A DNA stretch of 64,000 nucleotides from the IMG/VR virus record IMGVR_UViG_3300045988_167643, one strand, 5' to 3'. This document shows, in pieces, positions 8,606 to 59,989 of this stretch. Made by a program: the position numbers and the translations under genes. Source of the DNA: a virus. The notes under the pieces are model-generated. The model did no database searches and was not told where the DNA came from. It saw only the letters and a program-made list of their open reading frames with translations. The first letter of the stretch is position 1. Each line of letters begins with the position of its first letter.

Positions 8606-9640
8606 ATGAACATTGAAGAGATTAAGAAAAAAGTAGCTGGTCCGGACTATGATTTTCTGAGAAACAATGAACACCTTGGCTCCAACATTATTTTGTTGGG
8701 GTTAGGTGGAAGCTATAGCTATGGTACTCAAAAATCTGACGGAACGAGCGATTTGGATTTGAGGGGAATTTGCTTAAATAAAAAGCATGAAATTCTTACT
8801 AACCAGAATTTTGAACAATTTATCAACGAAGATACAGATACAACTATTTATGCGTTTAATAAGATTATTTATCTTATGGCAGCTTGCAACCCTAATGTTA
8901 TTGAGCTAGGAGGGCTTAAACCAGAACATTATTTATATATTCATCCAATTGGACAAGAAATATTAGATAATGCACATATGTTTTTATCTAAAAGGGCAAT
9001 TCATTCATTTGGTGGTTATGCCTCGCAACAATTAAGAAGAACAAATAACAAGGCAGCTCGTTTAGTAGGACAAACAGAGCGTGAACAACATATTTTAAAT
9101 TCGATAAACAATGCATTTTATACTTTTCCTACAAAATATTTTACATTTCCGGATGATTCTATAAAACTATATGTAGATAAGGCGGTTCAAGAAGACTATG
9201 ATACCGAAGTATTTATGGATATTAATCTAAAGCATTATCCGTTACGTGACTATAAATCTATGTGGTCCGAAATGAATAATATTGTTAAAGATTACTCGAA
9301 AATTGGTAAGCGTAATAAACATGCGGTAGAGCATGGAAAATTAGGTAAGCACATGATGCATTTGGTTCGCCTGTACTATATGTGTTTTGATATTTTGGAA
9401 AATGAGAAGATTATTACATACAGAGAAAAAGAACATTATTTGTTGATGGACATTAGAAATGGTAAATATTTAGATGAAAACAAACAGCCAATTCCAGAAT
9501 TCTTTGAGATGGTAAATGAGTTGGAAAAGAGACTGGAATATGATGCAGAAAACACATCACTTCCAGACAGTCCGGATTATAAAAGAATCAATGAGTTTGT
9601 TATGTCTGTAAACGAAAGAATTGTGAAAGGAGAAATTTAA
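8606..9640 (+). CDS. pol-beta superfamily nucleotidyltransferase (YcgL/RlaP-like by recollection)
   Basis: GLGGSYSYGTQKSDGTSDLDLRGI matches the G[SG]x9-13 D.D NTase signature. ATG 8606 lies 1 nt after the upstream stop (the track start 8588 is TTG). Confidence 0.7.
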   Translation: MNIEEIKKKVAGPDYDFLRNNEHLGSNIILLGLGGSYSYGTQKSDGTSDLDLRGICLNKKHEILTNQNFEQFINEDTDTTIYAFNKIIYLMAACNPNVIELGGLKPEHYLYIHPIGQEILDNAHMFLSKRAIHSFGGYASQQLRRTNNKAARLVGQTEREQHILNSINNAFYTFPTKYFTFPDDSIKLYVDKAVQEDYDTEVFMDINLKHYPLRDYKSMWSEMNNIVKDYSKIGKRNKHAVEHGKLGKHMMHLVRLYYMCFDILENEKIITYREKEHYLLMDIRNGKYLDENKQPIPEFFEMVNELEKRLEYDAENTSLPDSPDYKRINEFVMSVNERIVKGEI

Positions 9641-25363: not shown

Positions 25364-25435
25364 AGCATCTTAGTGTAATGGTTATCACGGATGACCTTGG
25401 ATCATCAGATGTTGGTTCGATTCCAACAGGTGCCG
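25364..25435 (+). tRNA. near-canonical tRNA, anticodon UUG (Gln) if read conventionally, but with C33 and an A1.C72 mismatch
   Basis: Hand fold: AGCATCT-TA-GTGTAATGGTTATCAC-G-GATGA-CCTTGGA-TCATC-AGAT-GTTGG-TTCGATT-CCAAC-AGGTGCC-G. Confidence 0.5.
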
Positions 25436-25506
25436 TTAACTCAGAAATGAGTATTTCAAAGTTAAAAATTTAAAGAATAAAATTCAATTTAAAGGAGAAG
25501 AAAATT

Positions 25507-26157
25507 ATGACAAAAGAAACTATGACAGTACATAAAGCGTTAGCAGAAATTAAAATCCTTAAAGACAGAATCCAGAGTGAGATTTACAATTCAATTTTTG
25601 TATCTTGCAAAAAAAATTCTCAGTCAAAAATTTCTGGAATGGATGTTGATGAATATGAGAAGATTATTACAGGATGTTACGACAAAGATGTAGATCTTAT
25701 GAGTAGACTTGAAGCTCTGCAGAGAGCAGTAATGCTTTCAAATGCAGTAACAAAAGTTAAGATTAAAATTGGAGAAAATGAAGAAGAACGTACTGTAGCA
25801 GAAGCAATCAACATGAAAAATAACAGTATGATGTTCAAGAGACAGATGCTTGACAGAATGCAGCAACAGCTTTCTCAGGCACAGGCAAAAACAAACAAAG
25901 AGAATGAGATTCTTGAAAGTAAGTCAGAAAATTATGTAACTGGTCTTTTTGGACAGAAAGAGGGTAAAACTTCTACCGATGAAGTTACAAAAGCCAAACA
26001 GCAGTACATTGATCTTAACACATGGGAGTTGATTGATCCGATAAATGTGCAAAATAAAATCCGTGTTTTATCTGACGAAATTTCATCATTTGAAGCAGAA
26101 GTAGACTCTGTTTTAAGCACAAGTAACGCATTAACAACAGTTACAATTGAGTATTAA
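25507..26157 (+). CDS. coiled-coil hypothetical protein, the only clear CDS inside the RNA island
   Basis: ORF track, with AAAGGAG RBS. Confidence 0.7.
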   Translation: MTKETMTVHKALAEIKILKDRIQSEIYNSIFVSCKKNSQSKISGMDVDEYEKIITGCYDKDVDLMSRLEALQRAVMLSNAVTKVKIKIGENEEERTVAEAINMKNNSMMFKRQMLDRMQQQLSQAQAKTNKENEILESKSENYVTGLFGQKEGKTSTDEVTKAKQQYIDLNTWELIDPINVQNKIRVLSDEISSFEAEVDSVLSTSNALTTVTIEY

Positions 26158-26435
26158 AGAATGGTTAGTGAATTATTTGCTGAAAATTGTATAAACGATT
26201 TTTGACCAATATGATAGCTAAATAGCCATTGCTATACGAACAGTTGTATAAAAGATTTCCTTCATTGCTTATCGAAAATCACTGAACTATAATCCTTTAG
26301 TCTTTCAGTCAGCATAGAGTAAAGTAAAAAATTAAACAAGCTGGCCTTAAAAATTAAATGGTTTAGACTCATACTCTAAATAATTTTACTAAGTTAGATA
26401 AAATTGTGCAGAAGTGCATTATTACTAATGCATGT

Positions 26436-26554
26436 AAAGTTTAAAGATAGAAAGTTCAAACCTTAAAGTTCAAAATTCAAAGCTTATTTTTGATATAAAG
26501 TTCACGTAGTAAAGTTGATAAGTTCCAAAGTTTGATAAAAACCTTGAGAAAGTT
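26436..26554. repeat. iteron-like array, 7 direct copies of AAAGTT(C/T/G)
   Basis: AAAGTT occurs at 26436, 26451, 26465, 26497, 26511, 26527 and 26549. A TGCATTA/TAATGCA palindrome lies just upstream. Confidence 0.7.
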
Positions 26555-26683
26555 TTGGTAGCATGATTATATCGGCTCTGTGGTTTGTACAAGGCTGATA
26601 AGTGGTGAAGTTCATCTTATAAATAAATCAATGCGGTTATTAAAACCTTGTTTCTTAGTTCTAACAAAGCCGCAGTTGGAACG

Positions 26684-26752
26684 TCCTGGATAGTTAAATG
26701 GTTATAACACATGAAACCCATGTATTTGCCGGTTCGAATCCGCATTCAGGAT
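26684..26752 (+). ncRNA. aberrant tRNA-like element (5-nt anticodon-like loop, weak T stem)
   Basis: Acceptor TCCTGGA/TTCAGGA, D arm GTTA-AATGGTTA-TAAC, ACATG-AAACC-CATGT, and T loop TTCGAAT with only 3 clean stem pairs. Confidence 0.4.
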
Positions 26753-26813
26753 TTGGGTTAGTTACCCAAAAAAGATTTCTTATTTCTTATACCTCCTAAA
26801 GTGTTGATGAGGT

Positions 26814-26880
26814 GGGGCATGACTTCGATGGCGAAGAGACTTTAAATAGTCTGTACTGGGTTCGACTCCCAGATGTCCTA
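26814..26880 (+). ncRNA. aberrant tRNA-like element (67 nt, 6-nt loop TTAAAT)
   Basis: Acceptor GGGGCAT/ATGTCCT with G.U pairs, D arm CTTC-GATGGC-GAAG, AGACT-TTAAAT-AGTCT, and a perfect T arm CTGGG-TTCGACT-CCCAG. Confidence 0.4.
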
Positions 26881-27227
26881 TTAGAGATTTCAGATATGTG
26901 GTGCCACAAAAACGCTTCTCAATATCCGAGTTGCCGTACCGTTTGACTACACAATATCGTGTATGATCCACCTACAGAGCGCAGTAGTTCTGGAATCTCG
27001 AAGCTATACGAAAGATTTGTTTACTGCTAGAGCAATCGAATAGTACGGTTAAACTTTTACATATTTAGTAACAGCAGAGTAGCAGCTGTGCGTGAAAAAG
27101 TGTATATATCTTCGGAAGTTCAATCAAACTTACAGTATGTGGTTATGGTTCTTGTGGCGATGAGCCTTATAAGAAGATCAGAGTACTCTAAAAAGGTTTG
27201 GTTTACAAAGTTGTTTCAATTTTAGCA

Positions 27228-27284
27228 GACACATTCCAGATGGGGAGCCTTAATTGGTTCTGAGTTCAACCCTCAGATGTGTCT
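27228..27284 (+). ncRNA. truncated tRNA-like element (57 nt: acceptor + T arm + one short region)
   Basis: Perfect 7-bp acceptor GACACAT/ATGTGTC and T arm CTGAG-TTCAACC-CTCAG. Only 25 nt sit where the D and anticodon arms should be. Confidence 0.4.
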
Positions 27285-27815
27285 CTTAGGAAGAGTTTCT
27301 TCCTATTATAAATTGAATAGCATAGTTGCGAATATAGGCGGTGCAAAACAATCATCGACATAATAAATCCCAAAGTCATCGTTAGGGAACTCCGTGGAGT
27401 CTGCTCCTATGGCTGATGGACTCTTATGCTATCCATTTTGAATAAGGCGTAGTTAACCTGTGGATGTGGTGAAACGATATATCCCTCCAAAGTTCTGACA
27501 CTTATCAGATATTCAAATGGCGTTATAGCTCTACACATACGTTAAATGTGGGAATTGTAATTAAGGAGCATTATATATTTTATGTATATGGATATAATAA
27601 AATTCTTTTGATGAACTTCTAATGTAGATTACACTATGTTGTTACCATATAGACTTAATAGAAGGAATTTGAAAGAGAAATAATTTCATATTGGAAGTAG
27701 CTATTGTAGATACATATCATCTGAGGTGTGGATGTGAAGATGGCTACGCAGATCTCTCGAAGAAAGTCTAGGCGTAAAGTAAGATGAGTAGATACTGAAG
27801 ATATGAAATTGTTTT

Positions 27816-27888
27816 TGGGTTGTGATGAAGCGGTCAACATCCGGAGCTTTGACCTCCGTATTCGTAGGTTCAAATCCTACCAGCCCAG
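27816..27888 (+). tRNA. tRNA-Gln (anticodon UUG)
   Basis: 73-nt cloverleaf: TGGGTTG-TG-ATGAAGCGGTCAACAT-C-CGGAG-CTTTGAC-CTCCG-TATTC-GTAGG-TTCAAAT-CCTAC-CAGCCCA-G. The U1-A72 pair and D loop resemble bacterial tRNA-Gln. Confidence 0.85.
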
Positions 27889-28055
27889 CTAGTGTTATAA
27901 GTATGCAACGGTAATTGAATATAAATAATAGTAATATGTCACCTTCAAGATAATCCTAGGACTTGAAGTAAAATAAATTACACCTGTGATTAAAGTATTA
28001 TAAAATATATTTATTTATTGGAGGTCGTGCATGGCTTCGCTTATAACACAACCAA

Positions 28056-28129
28056 GGACCATTAGCCAAACGGTTAAGGCAGTCGCCTCATAAGCGAAAG
28101 ATTTCTGTGTTCGAATCACAGATGGTCCA
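28056..28129 (+). tRNA. tRNA with CAU anticodon (Met, or Ile2 if lysidine-modified)
   Basis: GGACCAT-TA-GCCAAACGGTTAAGGC-A-GTCGC-CTCATAA-GCGAA-AGATTT-CTGTG-TTCGAAT-CACAG-ATGGTCC-A. Confidence 0.8.
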
Positions 28130-28488
28130 TATCCACTACGTAACGTATTCCTCATAAATACGTTAGCGATAAAAACTTGACTACTTGATATGAGCAAGCA
28201 GAAGAGATATGCTAAGTTCTTGGTTATAGGCATATCAAAAACGCACAAAAATACAAAATACAATTTAATAACATGCAAAAACCGTTGTCAAAAATATCTC
28301 ATATAAATCCTGTGTGGATTTTACGATAGTCCGAAACTGAGAGGGATTGGTTCAGCGTAAGAGATATACGAGACCTTTAAGTATCAGAAAGTAGGCGGTA
28401 GGTTTTCACAATGGTCACCTACAAAATAGTATGTAAGCCTATACTGATGATGTGCGCAGTTGTCAGTATAGCAGTACTTAAAAAATAA

Positions 28489-28572
28489 ACGGATGTGGCG
28501 AAATCAGGAAAACGCACCAGACTTAGGAACTGGTGGCTAACAGCCTTGTGGGTTCGAGTCCCATCATCCGTA
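28489..28572 (+). tRNA. tRNA-Leu (anticodon UAG), type II with long variable arm
   Basis: ACGGATG-TG-GCG-AAATCAGGAAAA-CGC-A-CCAGA-CTTAGGA-ACTGG-TGGCTAACAGCCTT-GTGGG-TTCGAGT-CCCAT-CATCCGT-A. Confidence 0.85.
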
Positions 28573-53942: not shown

Positions 53943-54935
53943 ATGTTATCAGCAATCGTTTGTATGGATAATTTTGGTGGAATCGGCAAAGATGGTGACT
54001 TACTTTATAAGATTCCAGAAGATATGAAAAGATTTAAAGAATTAACAATGGGACATTCTGTTATCATGGGAAGAAAGACATGGAACAGTATTGGTAACAA
54101 GCCACTTAAAAGTAGGAACAATATTATCCTTTCTACGACACTTAATTATGCAGTAGAGCCAATCAATATCAATGAAAATAATGGATATGTTACAGATGTT
54201 AATGTGCTAAAAAAAATGACAAAAGAAGAAATAAAATTTATAGCCGAAATTCCGCTTAAATATTTTGCAATCGGTGGAGAAAGTATCTATAAAATGTTCT
54301 TACCTTATTGCGAAAAAGTTTATGCAACAATCGTTAATTTAGGCGATAGATGTATCTCTACAGCAGATGTATTTTTTCCAATTGAGTACCTTCTAAACAA
54401 TTTTGATGAAATTGAATCTATAGATAATACATACGGTAATTTATCATATAGTTTCAAAACATTTGTTAGAAAAGACAATTGCAAAACTGTATCCCACGCT
54501 TATTCTGATCCAGTTTCTGGACATAATGCAGTAGATAATCCGTCTCATTATTGCGGAACAAAATACCAGGTAATTAATTTTATAGAAGACTGGGGACTTG
54601 GTTATTGCCTTGGTAATGTAGTTAAATATATCTGCAGAGCCGGTAAGAAATATGTTGGTGACAAGCAAAAAGAACTTCAGGATTTAAAAAAAGCTAAATG
54701 GTATCTTGAAAGAAGATTAGAAGAGCATAAAAATGGTGTTGAGCTTGATTCTGATGATCTGAAAATGAATATATCTATAGACGATTTTGTAGAAGATCAA
54801 AAGCTCAATTATATTCGTAAAAAAATTATAAAAAATGTTACTGATTGCGTTTATGAAGAAATTGACACTAAGTTTTATGCCGCCTTAGAGTTGCTTGATA
54901 CAGAAATTAACAGGATGGAGGATGAGACTGCATGA
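53943..54935 (+). CDS. folA: dihydrofolate reductase fused to a DUF3310-like C-terminal domain
   Basis: The N-terminal IVCMDNFGGIGKDGDLLYKIPEDMKRFKELTMGHSVIMGRKTWNSI is DHFR. The C-terminal NPSHYCG...IEDWGLGYCLGNVVKYICRAGKK...DLKKAKWYLERRL matches the DUF3310 signature I recall. Confidence 0.8.
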   Translation: MLSAIVCMDNFGGIGKDGDLLYKIPEDMKRFKELTMGHSVIMGRKTWNSIGNKPLKSRNNIILSTTLNYAVEPININENNGYVTDVNVLKKMTKEEIKFIAEIPLKYFAIGGESIYKMFLPYCEKVYATIVNLGDRCISTADVFFPIEYLLNNFDEIESIDNTYGNLSYSFKTFVRKDNCKTVSHAYSDPVSGHNAVDNPSHYCGTKYQVINFIEDWGLGYCLGNVVKYICRAGKKYVGDKQKELQDLKKAKWYLERRLEEHKNGVELDSDDLKMNISIDDFVEDQKLNYIRKKIIKNVTDCVYEEIDTKFYAALELLDTEINRMEDETA

Positions 54936-55072
54936 TTACACTTAGTATTGGTACATTTATTTGTATTGTAGGCTGCACATTTGTGGTTGGTGGAGTAGTT
55001 GGACTTATTCTTACAGCTTGTCTTACTGCCGGAAGAAATAAAGATGATGATGATATTGATCAATATCCGTAA
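54932..55072 (+). CDS. small membrane protein (46 aa)
   Basis: Read by hand. ATG overlaps the folA stop (ATGA). A hydrophobic core is followed by an acidic tail. Confidence 0.4.
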   Translation: MITLSIGTFICIVGCTFVVGGVVGLILTACLTAGRNKDDDDIDQYP

Positions 55073-55120
55073 TATATTAAGCAAAATAAGTAAAATATTG
55101 CGAAATTGGGACTCGAACTA

Positions 55121-55149
55121 TTGCAAGAAATATATAAATTTCGTATAAT
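55121..55149 (+). promoter_or_regulatory. near-consensus sigma-70/SigA promoter
   Basis: TTGCAA (55121-26), an exact 17-nt spacer, then TATAAT (55144-49). Confidence 0.65.
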
Positions 55150-55155
55150 GACTTC

Positions 55156-55316
55156 AAGGTCAGAAGTACTATGTTCGAGGGCAATAAACTTTAGCGTAAA
55201 ATGGGGCAAATTTTTTAGCCTGAAACATCAAACAAAATAGTTTACTTACAAGGAACTTATAAGAACAAGAACATAGAAAATGACCTTTGATATTTTTATC
55301 CGAGGTCATTTTTTTG
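55156..55316 (+). ncRNA. candidate ~160-nt sRNA or terminated leader upstream of the Tn7-like genes
   Basis: Runs from the predicted TSS about 7 nt after the -10 box to an intrinsic terminator. It contains no ORF. The 5' AAGGTCA can pair with the terminator 5' arm. Confidence 0.5.
55277..55316 (+). terminator. intrinsic terminator
   Basis: ATGACCT(55280-86)/AGGTCAT(55303-09) plus an inner GATA/TATC stem, followed by T6-7. Confidence 0.7.
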
Positions 55317-55582
55317 TGCAATTTGACGAAAAGTTCAAAAAACAGCCAAAAATAGCTCAAAATCGCGATTTTTCCAAAAATCGACTTTCTAGAAGTCAAT
55401 AAAAATAAGGGATTTAAGTGGGTCATTTTCCCGATAAAATTGTGATTTTATTGTAGTCAAGTTAACATGCACAAAAGAGGAAAATCTTGCGTCAGAGCAA
55501 ATTTTGACCGGAATAAAAGAATAAAATTTTTGCCTCAAAAAAGGCTAAAAGCAATTGCCCTTCGACATAGTATTTTTAACCT

Positions 55583-55751
55583 CGTTTTTAGGAAACGTTT
55601 TTAGGAAAATCCGCAAACCATTGATTTTACTGGGTTTGCGAGTACTTTATTTTTCCTAAAAACGAAATGCTAAAAATGAAAATAACCCTAAAAATGCGTT
55701 TTTAGGAAAAAATCATTCGTTTTTAGCAAAAAAATAGCCGTTTTTATGAAA
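55583..55751. repeat. array of 13-bp CGTTTTTAGGAAA motifs (putative transposase-binding sites)
   Basis: Forward copies lie at 55583, 55596, 55697, 55718 and 55739, the last three phased at exactly 21 bp. Reverse copies lie at 55652-64, 55668-77 and 55686-96. An 8-bp-stem hairpin lies at 55612-55640. Confidence 0.75.
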
Positions 55752-55779
55752 AACCATTTCAAAAATAGGGGGTAAAATA

Positions 55780-56139
55780 ATGCGGAATAAAAATTCAAAA
55801 GTAGCTGCAACAAAATTATATTTATGCAAATGTGATGGCGTATGCATAACCTACAGCAAGATTCAATATGCCTATGCAATGAAACTAGAAAAAGATCAAA
55901 GCATAATCAGTATACGAGTAAATGTAGATCTTGATGGATATAAGGATAGTAAGTATCCAGAAAGAACTTACACATCAGACTTTGTATGCGTAAAAGATAC
56001 AGGTGACCTAATGGTCCGAGAATGTATAGAAAGAAAATTATTGCAAAAACCAATGACAATTAGATTACTAGACGGTTCCAGAGATTACTGGAAGACGCAT
56101 GGTGTGTCAGATTGGGGGATTGTTATTGATGAAGAATAA
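55780..56139 (+). CDS. tnsA: short TnsA-like endonuclease-fold protein (N-terminal catalytic domain only)
   Basis: YSKIQYAYAMKLEKD..., TYTSDFVCV, MVRECIERK and RDYWKTHGVSDWGIVIDEE align by eye to the TnsA_N pattern (S.lE..., YTPDF, vEVK, YW..G..w.ivtE). Confidence 0.55.
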   Translation: MRNKNSKVAATKLYLCKCDGVCITYSKIQYAYAMKLEKDQSIISIRVNVDLDGYKDSKYPERTYTSDFVCVKDTGDLMVRECIERKLLQKPMTIRLLDGSRDYWKTHGVSDWGIVIDEE

Positions 56140-57952
56140 ATTGTATAAATACAAAGATACAATAGTAAGAGTCTTAAACGAATCTGGTCAATCAGTTTTT
56201 ATTATTGATTGTTTAAAACCAAAAATGCCATATACAGTGCATAAAATGGATTTTAAGGACGCTATTTTGTGTGATGAGGATTTACTCATGCAAGAGACAA
56301 ATGAGCCTGTATTCGACATATTAGAAGCTTCGGAGCATAATAAAAAGATAGCATACGATCGGTACAACATGATTGCTCCATTACTTTCCTTTATGGACGA
56401 TAAATATAAACGAACATTATTGTTTAATCAAGTATGTCAGGAAAGAAATATAAGCAAACAGTCTCTTAGAAATTACTTTTACAAGTATCTTATTTACCAA
56501 AATATTTGTGTACTTGCACCTAAGAGTAACATTACAGAAAAATCACTTACACAAGATGAAAAAAATATGAGATGGGCTTTAAATAAATATTTTTATAGTA
56601 CAAACAGATATAGTTTAAAGTCTTCTTACTTATTTATGCTGAAAGAAAAATATTGCGATATAAATGGCAAGCTACAATCAAATATTCCATCTTTTTATCA
56701 GTTCCGCTATTTCTATAGGAAAACAAAAAATATGCAAACTTTTTACATCACAAGGGATGGTTTGAGTAATTATCAAAGAAATAAAAGACCATTATTGGGG
56801 GATGGAATACAAGAATTTGCACCTGCAGTTGGAACAGGATTACTTGATGCAACGGTATGTGATATATACCTTATAGATGAAACAAACAGCTTAGTTGGAA
56901 GACCTATATTAACAGTTTGTATAGACGCATATAGCAGTTTTTGTTATGGCTATGCATTAACTTGGGAAGGTGGTATTTATAGTTTAAAAGTACTTATGCA
57001 AAATATGGTATCTAATAAAAAGAAACATTGTGAAGAACTTGGTATATTCATAAATGAGAATCAGTGGAGCATATCTGAAATTCCTGGAACGTTTGTAACT
57101 GATATGGGAAAAGAATATGTATCTGAGAATTTTGAACAAATAACTGAGCTTGGAGTTACACTAAAAAACTTGCCACCATACCGTCCTGAGTTAAAAGGTG
57201 TTGTAGAAAAATTTTTTAATATAATTCAAGAAACATACAAACCTTATTTAAAAAATAAAGGTATAGTGGAACCTGATTTTCTTGAAAGAGGCGTACATGA
57301 TTATAGAAAAGATGCATGTTTGACAATAGAAGACTTTGAAAAAATCATAGTGCGATGTATTGTGTATTATAACTCGCAACGTATTTTAAAGAACTTCCCT
57401 TATACAGAAGACATGATAGAAAACGATATTAAGCCATATGCAAATAATATTTTTGAGTACAGCAAATTATCTCCAGGAGCTAACTTAATACCGGTAACAT
57501 TGAAACAAATTATGCTTACATTACTTCCAAGGACCACTGGCGTATTTAGCAGATTTGGACTTAAAGTGAATAAAATGAGGTACAAAAATGAGAATTATGT
57601 TGAAAAATATTTGGTTGGTGGGGAAGTAACGGTTGCTTATAATCCAGATAATGTAAGTTATGTATGGCTTATAGAAAATGGATGTTATATACAGTTTAAA
57701 TTGATTGAAAGTAGGTATAATGGAAAAGAGTTAACTGATGTAGAATTGATCGAAAAAGAACATCGAAAACTCGTAAATAATCATTGTAATAGTAACACTC
57801 AGGCACAAATTGATTTGGCAAATTCTTTAGAAGAGATAGTGGCTAATGTACAGAAACCTCAAAAATTAAATATGAAATGTGTTACATCTGTTAAAAATAG
57901 AGCTAAAAGAAAATGTCATATTGATTTCATGGAGGATATCTTAAATGGATGA
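56129..57952 (+). CDS. tnsB: TnsB/TniA-type DDE transposase (rve/Mu-like)
   Basis: DDE triad contexts LLDATVCDIYLID, FVTDMGKEY and PELKGVVEKFF. An HTH-like N-terminal region is present. ATG 56129 or 56099 could be the start. Confidence 0.85.
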   Translation: MKNKLYKYKDTIVRVLNESGQSVFIIDCLKPKMPYTVHKMDFKDAILCDEDLLMQETNEPVFDILEASEHNKKIAYDRYNMIAPLLSFMDDKYKRTLLFNQVCQERNISKQSLRNYFYKYLIYQNICVLAPKSNITEKSLTQDEKNMRWALNKYFYSTNRYSLKSSYLFMLKEKYCDINGKLQSNIPSFYQFRYFYRKTKNMQTFYITRDGLSNYQRNKRPLLGDGIQEFAPAVGTGLLDATVCDIYLIDETNSLVGRPILTVCIDAYSSFCYGYALTWEGGIYSLKVLMQNMVSNKKKHCEELGIFINENQWSISEIPGTFVTDMGKEYVSENFEQITELGVTLKNLPPYRPELKGVVEKFFNIIQETYKPYLKNKGIVEPDFLERGVHDYRKDACLTIEDFEKIIVRCIVYYNSQRILKNFPYTEDMIENDIKPYANNIFEYSKLSPGANLIPVTLKQIMLTLLPRTTGVFSRFGLKVNKMRYKNENYVEKYLVGGEVTVAYNPDNVSYVWLIENGCYIQFKLIESRYNGKELTDVELIEKEHRKLVNNHCNSNTQAQIDLANSLEEIVANVQKPQKLNMKCVTSVKNRAKRKCHIDFMEDILNG

Positions 57953-59180
57953 TTATACAAAAATATTACCTAAAATGTTATCAGGAGATGGACTTGTAAA
58001 AGCATTGTCTGTTGTTCCAAAATATGATGAAAATAGTAAAAATATGGATATTGGAGAAAGGCTGATTGCCCTATCAAATCTATATGATATTTATATTCCA
58101 TCTAAAATGTCCATAGAGATTTATAACAAATTATATTTGTCTTTATATCACTCACTAAAAAAGAAGAGTTCAAAATTGGCATCACAGCAAAGATACGAAA
58201 ATTACAAAAGATTTTTAACAGGAAACTCTAATAGTATAATTGGCGGATCTGATTCATTTACAATAATAGGGAGTTCAGGTATTGGTAAAAGTACAGCCGT
58301 TAACAGGGCAGTAGATGTTATTGTTGAAAATTGTAAATTTGATTGCAATTTATTCTCAGATATAATTCCATTTGTAACTGTACAATGCCCATTTGATTCA
58401 TCTGTAAAAGGTCTTGCGATCGAAATTTTGATGAAGATAAACAGTATGCTTAAAACACAATATTTAAATGGGAAAATTATTGATAAATGTACCACAGATG
58501 CCCTCATAAGCCAAATAAGTACAATAGCAATGAATAATATAGGTGTTCTTATCATTGATGAGATACAAAATGTTGCAAACTCAAAAAACGGTAAAAATAT
58601 AATAGGATTTCTTACACAGCTTATCAACAATAGTGGAATAAGTATTTGCATGGTTGGGACTCCGGAAAGCGTGTTATTTTTTGAAGGCGCAGAGCATCTT
58701 GCCAGAAGAACTATGGGGCTTAAATATACAACACTTTCTTATGATGAGTACTTTAAAAACATATGTAATATATTATTTAGATATCAATATACTATAAAAA
58801 ATGCAACAATAAATGAAGAGTTTTATAAATGGATATATGACCATTCCTGCGGTAACATTTCAATTGTAATATCATTATTACACGATGCTCAGGAAATTGC
58901 TATAATGTCAGGAGTTAGTAAGATTAATATTAATATATTGAATGAAGCATACCAAAATAGGATTGAAATGTATCACAAATTTATACAACCAAGCATTAAC
59001 AAAGTCGATAAAAAGAAAAATAAACACATAGTATCTGATAGAACAAATAATATCACACAAGATTGCGTAATAAAAGAGTTTAATAACATTGAAACGATAT
59101 TGAAAATATCTAAGGAAAAAAATATTGATTTTATAAAACTGCTCAAACAATCAATTATAGTGGAGGAAATAAAAATATGA
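57945..59180 (+). CDS. tnsC: TnsC/TniB-type AAA+ transposition regulator
   Basis: Walker A GSSGIGKST and Walker B VLIIDEIQN. Coupled to tnsB and tniQ. Confidence 0.8.
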   Translation: MDDYTKILPKMLSGDGLVKALSVVPKYDENSKNMDIGERLIALSNLYDIYIPSKMSIEIYNKLYLSLYHSLKKKSSKLASQQRYENYKRFLTGNSNSIIGGSDSFTIIGSSGIGKSTAVNRAVDVIVENCKFDCNLFSDIIPFVTVQCPFDSSVKGLAIEILMKINSMLKTQYLNGKIIDKCTTDALISQISTIAMNNIGVLIIDEIQNVANSKNGKNIIGFLTQLINNSGISICMVGTPESVLFFEGAEHLARRTMGLKYTTLSYDEYFKNICNILFRYQYTIKNATINEEFYKWIYDHSCGNISIVISLLHDAQEIAIMSGVSKININILNEAYQNRIEMYHKFIQPSINKVDKKKNKHIVSDRTNNITQDCVIKEFNNIETILKISKEKNIDFIKLLKQSIIVEEIKI

Positions 59181-59989
59181 CAAACAGACTTCCTAGCATC
59201 TATGATGACGAAACAGTTTACAGCTGGTTCTGTAGATATCTTATAAGTAGCGGTATATGGAGAGAGCATGAGATTGCAAAAGAACTATTTGTAAACAGTA
59301 CAAATGTTATTAGTAAATTATTTATTGGAAATATTAATAAAGATACCGAAAATAATATTGAGAAAGTTATATCAATAGAAAATCTGTTAAAACATCATAC
59401 AATGTTTTATGTTTATACAGGGTATTGTTCAAATGACTATGCTAATGAATTCCTTTATAATTTAAAAACGGACTGCTATAAAACAGAGCTTAATATAAGA
59501 AGACCACGTAGCGAAAATAGACAATTGAAATATTGTCCAATGTGTATTATTGAGGATCGTAAAAAATATGGAGAAGCATATTGGCATAATATACATCAAA
59601 TACGAATGTTACCGATATGTCCTATACACAAGTGCAAATTGCATAATAGTGAAATACGTTATATTGGTTATGGAAGAGTAAGAGAAAAATTATCTCCACT
59701 AGAAATGATGAATCTTAACTCTGATGTAGAATATAACACAAATGAAATGCTTGATAAAATAGTTGAATACGCAATTGACAGGTATTATAAACAAGACATA
59801 AAAGATATTGGTATTGATTATTTGTCGATTAGAAAAGAAAATTGGGGATTAAGAAGTAACATAATTAGTTTTTATAAAAAACATGGAATAAATTTTTGCG
59901 GTAAAGAAATAGACTCAATGGTATATGACAATAGAAAAAATTTTTATACAATGAGTGCCATATATTATTATTTAAAAATATGCCATTAA
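59177..59989 (+). CDS. tniQ: TniQ-family target-selection protein (short, 270 aa)
   Basis: N-terminal LPSIYDDETVYSWFCRY, and the zinc finger YCPMCIIED...HNIHQIRMLPICPIHKC is typical of TniQ/TnsD N-domains. Confidence 0.8.
   Translation: MTNRLPSIYDDETVYSWFCRYLISSGIWREHEIAKELFVNSTNVISKLFIGNINKDTENNIEKVISIENLLKHHTMFYVYTGYCSNDYANEFLYNLKTDCYKTELNIRRPRSENRQLKYCPMCIIEDRKKYGEAYWHNIHQIRMLPICPIHKCKLHNSEIRYIGYGRVREKLSPLEMMNLNSDVEYNTNEMLDKIVEYAIDRYYKQDIKDIGIDYLSIRKENWGLRSNIISFYKKHGINFCGKEIDSMVYDNRKNFYTMSAIYYYLKICH

Follow-up and report, generated by a model that had tools for sequence, protein, structure and literature searches.

Tn7 and Tn7-like transposons encode homologues of TnsB, TnsC and TniQ, have TGT...ACA ends with repeated sites of about 24 base pairs (bp), duplicate 5 bp of target DNA and insert site-specifically beside conserved genes. 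The same traits recur at a phage locus that we analysed in IMG/VR record IMGVR_UViG_3300045988_167643, a 64,000-nucleotide (nt) stretch of viral DNA (the window, meaning this whole stretch). Here they belong to a mini Tn7-like transposon, which we call U, and to the adjacent genes tnsA', tnsB, tnsC and tniQ. Unlike in Tn7-type transposons, the tns genes are located beyond the ends of the element, which itself measures only 250-400 bp, and the whole donor replicon is integrated between two copies of the element. The TnsA-like protein also differs, as it is a stub of 119 amino acids (aa) that probably lacks two catalytic residues.

Other described systems resemble the locus in part. According to one account (PMC11406308), loss of TnsA cleavage gives cointegrates, and a 5-bp target duplication is a signature of Tn7-type joining. 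The product predicted here has this cointegrate topology, and one relative (L008) has a resolvase-like gene beside its promoter. In cointegrate-forming systems, however, cointegrates arise as intermediates or as undesired by-products, and the element contains the genes, whereas here the cointegrate, a prophage, would apparently be what the process is meant to yield. Features shared with phage Mu and other transposable phages are a DDE transposase with a Mu-transposase C-terminal domain, an AAA+ partner, chromosomal entry and the 5-bp duplication. Yet the ends of Mu are its genome ends and it replicates by transposition, whereas this phage has its own polymerase, helicase and ligase, contains a tiny transposon internally and inserts at a fixed site. 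In IS26 translocatable units, a circle with one element joins a target and its cargo ends up between two direct copies, as here, but IS26 belongs to an unrelated family and carries its transposase inside the element.

There are also precedents for the proposed regulation. The junction promoters of insertion sequence (IS) circles (IS911, IS30 and IS2) and the read-through of Tn916 upon circularisation tie mobility genes to the circular form, a connection that integration breaks. In contrast to these, the promoter described here is complete and is separated from the genes by a terminator, for which we propose a leader-specific antiterminator as the bypass. Attenuators and antiterminators use mutually exclusive helices around an intrinsic terminator, and fold-back inhibition in IS10 protects against outside transcription. 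Unlike attenuators, this locus shows no sign of a ligand, a leader peptide or a tRNA sensor, and the discriminator would be the promoter and hence the 5' end of the transcript. In full-text literature searches, we found no description of the U family, of tns genes outside transposon ends or of this RNA. The combination of an attenuator with a replicative Tn7 relative in this arrangement appears undescribed.

The original prediction, made from the letters of the window alone, had proposed a near-consensus promoter that drives an RNA of about 160 nt, ends at a strong intrinsic terminator and has no open reading frame (ORF) in between. The promoter, P(far) (Table 1), matches the sigma-70 consensus at 10 of 12 positions in our promoter scan, and its near-consensus hexamers have the spacing (17 ± 1 nt) expected of a sigma-70-type promoter. 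This match alone is at chance level, with 20 promoter-like sites in the 5-kilobase (kb) region versus 26.6 expected in shuffled sequences, so the credibility of the features at this locus comes from comparison across relatives and from folding. The terminator is a G+C-containing hairpin followed immediately by a U-run. Positions 55280-55292 pair with 55297-55309 through 12 base pairs and one T.C mismatch around a TTTT loop, with a folding energy of about -13.7 kcal/mol, and seven T residues end at 55315; a simple hairpin pattern scan overlooked it because of the internal mismatch. The predicted 163-nt RNA folds at -34.3 kcal/mol (z = -2.65 versus shuffles).

No conserved ORF was found across the RNA unit in the window. 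We rejected an 85-aa minus-strand ORF (55169-55426) as coding because it is unconserved: it is interrupted by a stop codon in one close variant, has lost its ATG in another and changes freely elsewhere. The claim that there is no ORF between promoter and terminator thus holds in practice. An Rfam 15 covariance search of 54900-55900 at E-values up to 10 returned nothing near the gathering score and no riboswitch or T-box match, and ARAGORN found no tRNA at the locus, so a tRNA or other known RNA was discarded as its identity. The sequence GGGACTCGAAC at 55108-55118, just upstream of the -35 hexamer, resembles the reverse complement of a tRNA T-arm and was set aside as well, as no tRNA was predicted there on either strand. 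Neither a leader ORF nor an Rfam riboswitch or T-box match was found that would point to a sensed signal; a protein factor is conceivable.

We determined how far this unit is conserved through searches with TnsB. These returned phage contigs nearly identical to the window, further viral contigs in which TnsB is 50-59% identical, and 80 loci from the genomes of Lachnospiraceae, Oscillospiraceae, Sporomusa, Pelosinus and others. A blastn search of GenBank phages yielded no relative. The window and its relatives have only the four tns genes in common, yet the non-coding unit upstream of them is kept: the promoter-leader-terminator layout was present in 41 distinct sequences, with TnsB of the relatives 50-59% identical. 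Among these 41 far ends, the -35 hexamer reads TTGCAA, TTGAAA, TTGCAT, TTGTAA, TTGTAT or TTGACA and the -10 hexamer TATAAT or TATACT, while the spacer is always 17 nt long and variable in sequence. The leader motif CAAGGTC (AAAGGTT in L011) begins 4-7 nt past the -10 hexamer, and the L008 promoter reads TTGATT-17-TATACT. All six far flanks that were reached via TnsB alone, without the leader as a search pattern (L008, L010, L011, L030, L032 and L045), contained both promoter and leader.

The downstream order is conserved too. A leader of 14-17 nt outside U is followed by arm 1, which starts with TGTCGTAGGGCA and consists of two repeats of about 25 bp, then by a segment that pairs back to the arm 1 start (helix P1) and by a T-run hairpin with GACCTT in its stem. 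After about 130 nt come the inverted arm 2 ending in TGCCCTACGACA, a series of TTTTTGGGAA repeats and tnsA'. An equivalent hairpin with T-run was found in every relative in which the region was covered. Predicted RNAs measured 105-161 nt in relatives with a correctly placed terminator; our placement script chose a wrong hairpin for L103, L104, L144 and L145. Far from being absent from otherwise identical elements, an outcome that was initially named as grounds for abandoning the idea, the region is conserved. Sequence comparison thus indicates that the promoter and its predicted, terminated RNA of about 160 nt are a real and conserved unit.

The original prediction had also noted that AAGGTCA (55156-55162) at the start of the transcript could pair with TGACCTT (55281-55287) in the terminator 5' arm. 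In every lineage, the first 7-11 nt of the leader are complementary to the terminator 5' arm, and changes are compensatory. Leader and 5' arm read CAAGGTCA and TGACCTTG in L111, AAGGTTTAT and ATAAACCTT in L011, CAAGGUUUAUU and GAUAGACCUUG in L010, CAAGGUUC and GAGCCUUG in L008, and AGGUUG and CGACCU in L045. Because length differences spoiled alignment with MAFFT and RNAalifold, we assessed the pairing through duplex permutation and truncation folds. Cognate pairs had a mean duplex energy of -10.7 kcal/mol, compared with -9.3 when pairs were permuted and -4.3 when leaders were shuffled; 0.13% of permutations reached the observed cognate mean (p about 0.001). For RNAs truncated just short of the terminator 3' arm, folding at minimum energy paired the leader with the 5' arm in a helix that stacks on P1 in seven of seven diverged representatives, while every full-length RNA had the terminator as its minimum-energy fold. 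The 5' arm was paired upstream with a probability of 0.93-0.99 when the leader was present, versus 0.03 (phage), 0.17 (Sporomusa) and 0.60 (Anaerotruncus) when it was replaced by the host flank. P1 itself begins with the last three nucleotides of the leader and has a compensatory variant in L045 (ACCATGTT with AACATGGT).

An alternative helix on one terminator arm that is conserved or covarying, as seen here, is characteristic of an antiterminator, although its effect on termination is a prediction from folding. Of the two roles first suggested for the RNA, a small RNA (sRNA) or a riboswitch- or attenuator-like leader, the attenuator-like part gains from this conserved helix, and the riboswitch part found no match in Rfam. 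The leader, P1 and hairpin could instead be DNA-level features of the donor flank or pseudo-ends of a transpososome, with the promoter transcribing into the end to modulate its use or to insulate it. Arm 1 must indeed be constrained by TnsB binding, and the P1 3' strand with the terminator 5' arm (GAACATAGAAAATGACC) resembles both arm 2 with the near flank (CGACATAGTATTTTTAACC) and leader plus arm 1 read as their reverse complement. Still, the stem changes are compensatory and tolerate G.U pairs, as is typical of RNA. They occur in L008, L010 and L103 and between the two U copies of Anaerotruncus L030, which are identical at 235 of 249 positions and whose terminator stems differ by a compensatory pair (GCATC...GATGC versus GCGTC...GACGC). 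As the T-run past the hairpin and the fixed distance from the -10 hexamer to the leader are also transcription features, we consider a pure DNA-level role distinctly unlikely.

Most of the predicted RNA, from 55172 onward, is the left arm of U. This was missed in the original prediction, as was the position of the tns genes outside U, while the promoter, the terminated non-coding unit and the pairing were correctly recognised. With its TGT and ACA termini and several repeated, putative transposase sites, U has the makings of a Tn7-like transposon, and the two tandem repeats of arm 1 are probably TnsB-binding sites. Arms 1 and 2 co-vary within elements, and a 61-nt inverted repeat (I1) joins 55157-55217 to 55522-55582. 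A profile search (nhmmer) placed U beside tnsA' in most related loci. Tn7-like transposons are expected to hold their genes between their ends; here, they are found to the right of U, past its ACA end, and only U is duplicated.

The edges of U are also visible in the assemblies. Phage contigs stop at window-equivalent positions 55223-55226 or start at 55513. These breaks lie exactly k = 55 nt inside 55172 and 55567, and 55 is a common assembler k-mer length, so U must be a sharp-edged repeat with at least two contexts. Both contexts were recovered. In four independent contigs (L099, L102, L118 and L138), the dihydrofolate reductase (DHFR) gene, promoter, leader and U are followed directly after ...CGACA by host DNA toward galK; this right junction reads U(B)|AAAATGAAATT..galK. 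The left junction, ..GCATGTAAAAT|U(A), was found in L156, L152 and L159, where the region of a host AraC-family regulator is followed by U, the near flank and tnsA'. The empty host site in L160 reads GGAAATGCATGTAAAATGAAATTAAC (core ..GCATGTAAAATGAAATT..). Comparison of the junctions, which come from different samples, with the empty site shows that the 5 bp AAAAT are duplicated around the whole insertion (left in L156; right in L102, L118 and L138). The window phage inserts into the AraC-galK intergenic region, with the galK ATG about 130 bp downstream. L152:3350-6360 contains a prophage remnant at this site, in which host DNA, U(A) and an intact tnsA' are followed by a tnsB cut to 103 aa and by unrelated genes.

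These junctions place the phage of about 123 kb in lysogens between two direct copies of U and the 5-bp duplication, with the leader missing from the host-facing copy. From this arrangement, the transposition genes lie outside the transposon and the phage enters as, or like, a cointegrate. By the same comparison, the window is the un-integrated joint, which reads far flank with promoter, U, near flank and tns genes and was also present in most contigs. At this joint, the far end of the phage brings ThyA, DHFR, the promoter and the leader, and the near end the repeat array followed by tnsA'-tnsB-tnsC-tniQ. The U-backbone-U layout is shared by Anaerotruncus L030 and Ruminococcus L011. In L030, a second direct U is located 9.4 kb downstream of tnsB, with TTGCAA-17-TATAAT and AAGGTCAAGGATACTA ahead of it and host DNA directly behind it. 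Both ends of the L011 contig fall within a copy of U, and its far end carries this same promoter and leader. Arm 1 of chromosomal elements starts 5-25 nt past the stop codon of guaA or ppdK.

Table 1. Features of the locus, in window coordinates unless a contig is named.
Feature	Position	Strand	Remarks
P(far), predicted sigma-70-type promoter	55121..55149	+	far end of phage backbone, directed into U; spacer 17 nt
-35 hexamer TTGCAA	55121-55126		
-10 hexamer TATAAT	55144-55149		
Leader CAAGGTCAGAAGTACTA	55155..55171	+	first 17 nt of predicted transcript, outside U; begins CAAGGTCA
P1, 5' strand CTATGTTC	55169..55176	+	crosses leader/U boundary; pairs with 55269-55276 in minimum-energy fold
U, mini Tn7-like transposon, 5'-TGT...ACA-3'	55172..55567	+	396 bp; sole piece on both sides of integrated phage
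Arm 1 of U	55172..55219	+	two tandem repeats of about 24 bp, TGTTCGAGGGCAATAAACTTTAGC and GTAAAATGGGGCAAATTTTTTAGC; transcribed within predicted RNA
P1, 3' strand GAACATAG	55269..55276	+	minimum-energy fold
Intrinsic terminator inside U	55280..55315	+	ATGACCTTTGATA, TTTT loop, TATCCGAGGTCAT, T7
Arm 2 of U	55520..55567	-	inverted copy of arm 1, ending ...ATTGCCCTTCGACA
Near flank, outside U	55568..55779	+	six CGTTTTTAGGAAA-type repeats and hairpin 55613-55641
tnsA'	55780..56139	+	119 aa, TnsA-N-like domain only
tnsB, DDE transposase	56099..57952	+	rve and Mu-transpos_C domains; HTH_TnsB recorded for identical protein
tnsC/tniB, AAA+ ATPase	57945..59180	+	
tniQ	59177..59989	+	270 aa here; 445-488 aa in relatives
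Tandem U pair, L032	L032:8973-9500		
Tandem U pair, L143		-	
Tandem U pair, L146		-	

The inverted arms raise another explanation, in which the terminated RNA of about 160 nt is a trans-acting regulator of transposition. As it contains arm 1 as RNA, it could pair with any plus-strand transcript of arm 2 and the near flank, for example a putative tns leader or a read-through RNA, or could act as a decoy for TnsB or TniQ. Both promoter and terminator are predicted to be strong, the inverted repeat formed by the arms spans 61 nt at 70% in the window and matches at 36 of 37 nt in Sporomusa, and in the window the complementarity reaches into the flanks (55157-55171 versus 55568-55582). Complementary arms are needed for inverted transposon ends anyway, however, and so are uninformative about an RNA function. 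Arm 2 and the near flank are the sole complementarity of the RNA and are already accounted for by the function of the DNA, and sequence comparison showed no flank complementarity in Lachnospiraceae-type elements. Since a pure sRNA would not keep a leader that undermines its own terminator, whereas this pairing covaries, we regard a trans-acting regulator as unlikely.

We instead propose that the leader is a promoter-specific key. Before RNA polymerase has reached the 3' arm, it would pair with the terminator 5' arm and stack on P1, and a fraction of P(far) transcripts would read through U into tnsA'-tnsB-tnsC-tniQ. The original prediction had anticipated read-through in this direction, and the annotated gene order agrees with it. 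The terminated RNA of about 160 nt would be the default product. Read-through into the tns genes would be possible only where far flank, U and near flank are contiguous, that is, in the episomal genome. After integration, the promoter would lie about 120 kb from the tns genes and face U(B) and host DNA. At the tns-side copy, U(A), host DNA would take the place of the leader, so that the terminator, left without a competitor, would work fully and shield the tns genes from host transcription. In relatives, the terminator of U(A) would replace the displaced guaA or ppdK terminator and block read-through from these genes. We estimate a probability of about 0.5 that such a promoter-specific gate makes expression of the tns genes depend on the episomal state and keeps the copy in the prophage insulated. 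Consistent with the gate, our promoter scan found no sigma-70-like plus-strand site between P(far) and tnsA' in the window. Scans of the near flank identified none in L030 and L049 and one weak site in L012.

Several considerations weigh against this proposal. The start site, the termination efficiency and the read-through are all predictions. In all full-length folds the terminator is favoured at equilibrium, so the case for read-through is a kinetic one. Only 11 variants or lineages, which are phylogenetically non-independent, supply the covariation, and the likeness of the leader to the terminator 3' arm could, through shared ancestry, add to the pairing signal. The 5' arm was also moderately paired (0.60) in the host-flanked L030 control. 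Between U and tnsA', read-through could be halted or regulated by the hairpin at 55613-55641 and by the repeat array, and the tns genes might have a promoter that depends on an activator. Finally, if infecting DNA is linear (see below), promoter and tns genes would be unlinked at the moment of integration and the gate idea would lose force.

In lysogens, promoter, U(B) and galK point in the same direction, and the insertion lies close upstream of the galK start codon, so P(far) might simply be an outward promoter that restores expression of downstream host genes, galK in the case of the window phage. The same promoter is nevertheless kept at guaA and ppdK insertions, where only the terminator of the host gene follows U(B). 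This makes restoration of host genes a very unlikely purpose.

How the gated genes would bring about integration can be pictured in two ways. In a circular genome, TnsB would nick and join the 3' ends of the single U, and replication across only about 400 bp would yield the cointegrate, which is the prophage. Alternatively, the infecting DNA would be linear and have a direct repeat of U at its termini, of which the outer TGT and ACA ends would be joined straight to the target. The circular route is favoured by the nature of TnsA', a 119-aa TnsA-like stub with a weak match to Pfam PF08722 (Tn7_TnsA-like_N) in five of six homologues. A sequence search of solved structures gave no match to TnsA'. 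In a weak hhalign comparison with a manually entered Tn7 TnsA sequence, D114 was kept while E63 was replaced by Q and K132 by I or V. TnsA' may thus be a pseudo-nuclease in which the catalytic residues E63 and K132 are replaced; as support for the circular route, these replacements are a lead rather than proof. The frequency of single-U joints among small, non-phage elements also favours this route.

Two further observations concern the behaviour of U and of the cointegrate. Tandem U-U pairs are separated by spacers of 4-6 nt. In L032 (TGGT) and L143 (TGTTG) the spacer repeats the near-flank start, and in L146 (AAAT) it repeats the host duplication, which suggests that U alone can also insert beside an existing copy, with little target immunity. 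At L008:2500-2640, the far-end promoter is closely preceded by the 3' end of a gene whose product terminates in a resolvase-type helix-turn-helix (...GLKPNTFYRRVKEMKL); this gene may encode a dedicated recombinase that resolves or excises the cointegrate.

The genes themselves, TnsB and TnsC together with TnsA and/or TniQ, are those of a Tn7-like element. The module had been described as selector-less, a label that does not fit: TniQ is present and insertion is site-specific, on the galK side here and just after the guaA or ppdK stop codon in relatives. TniQ of the window is short, and only its N-terminal 160 or so residues align with TniQ of relatives with 50-59% TnsB identity. As this short TniQ nonetheless goes together with one precise galK-side site, target recognition by the window phage may be performed by a different domain or a separate protein. 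A role of the RNA in targeting, as initially suggested, would require it to be a guide that picks the insertion site for Cas-less Tn7-like machinery. Its position beside tnsABC-tniQ, the absence of Cas domains among the neighbouring genes and its conserved structure fit that idea. However, the longest words shared between U, leader or near flank and the guaA and ppdK targets are 6-9 nt, those shared with the galK site are 11-12 nt (null mean 10.2, maximum 14), and leaders are near-identical among elements at different host sites. Complementarity to host targets thus does not exceed chance, and the locus lacks both the Cas effector and the target-complementary guide of a CRISPR-associated transposon. 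A guide RNA is barely credible, and we rejected it.

The near flank contains its own repeats. The CGTTTTTAGGAAA-type repeats lie at 55583, 55596, 55652 (inverted), 55697, 55718 and 55739, the last three spaced 21 bp apart, in an array that spans 55583-55751. A degenerate copy on the minus strand (55371-55383) is found inside U. The array layout is kept in all relatives, where the repeat reads TTTTTGGGAA. We rejected the array as TnsB sites forming a transposon end, because the opposite end has no copies, with no inverted partners elsewhere in the window, and because host junctions and assembly breaks place the ends at 55172 and 55567. Candidate roles for the array are an operator, an enhancer or accessory TnsB sites. 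The near-flank hairpin at 55613-55641 reads CGCAAACC-12 nt-GGTTTGCG, with CCATTGATTTTACTGGG in its loop. Related AAAATCAAT-containing sequences occur in the opposite orientation in L005 (CCCAGTAAAATCAATAC), L011 and L012; in L012, the sequence overlaps a weak promoter-like site.

In the right half of U in the chromosomal elements L014, L030 and L049 (around 9380-9440), a conserved TCACCATGGAGTAGGGGC is followed by a covarying hairpin downstream of the terminator, with stems CCGGCCC...GGGCCGG, CCTGGC...GCCAGG and ACTTT...AAAGT. The motif and hairpin, which have no obvious equivalent in the longer U of the window, may represent another structured RNA or a site for a protein. The cargo of small chromosomal elements includes a type I restriction-modification methylase (L021:11400-12300 and L073:5100-6000), so these elements carry defence genes like other Tn7-like elements. 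Candidate other ends in L021 and L073 were chance matches within this methylase gene, and the pattern matches in L106, L108, L109, L116, L124, L135, L147, L148 and L149 were unrelated.

To the left, the locus is bordered by genes for thymidylate synthase and DHFR and, further left, by a phage-type replication module with a polymerase, a DnaB-like helicase, a RecJ-like exonuclease, a ligase and a ribonucleotide reductase. A 46-aa hydrophobic ORF (54932-55072) between DHFR and the promoter was called as a gene in all related contigs. Elsewhere in the window, tRNA genes cluster at 25-28 kb (25364-28572), with a weak Rfam tRNA match at 26684-26752 that ARAGORN did not call. A RAGATH-27 RNA lies inside this cluster at 26261-26346 (85 bits, above the gathering score).

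Taken together, these results lead us to a tentative picture, in which a large self-replicating phage and a wider family of 10-12-kb integrative elements of gut Firmicutes lysogenise through replicative transposition of a 250-400-bp mini Tn7-like element whose genes lie outside it. The prophage would be a deliberate cointegrate, and a 17-nt RNA key that unlocks an embedded terminator would make the integration genes available in the episome only and silence them upon integration. If true, this would be a compact RNA device in which an intrinsic terminator is heeded or ignored according to the promoter that gave rise to the transcript, needs neither a ligand nor a protein as sensor, and could be reused in synthetic circuits. 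It would also represent an undescribed integration route for phages and episomes, in which Tn7-type machinery encoded outside the element inserts an entire donor replicon site-specifically with a 5-bp duplication, and would suggest a natural system for inserting cargo of at least 100 kb. Lastly, it would explain why this family, widespread in Lachnospiraceae, Oscillospiraceae and Negativicutes, would be mis-delimited by boundary finders that look for arrays of transposase sites flanking the genes.

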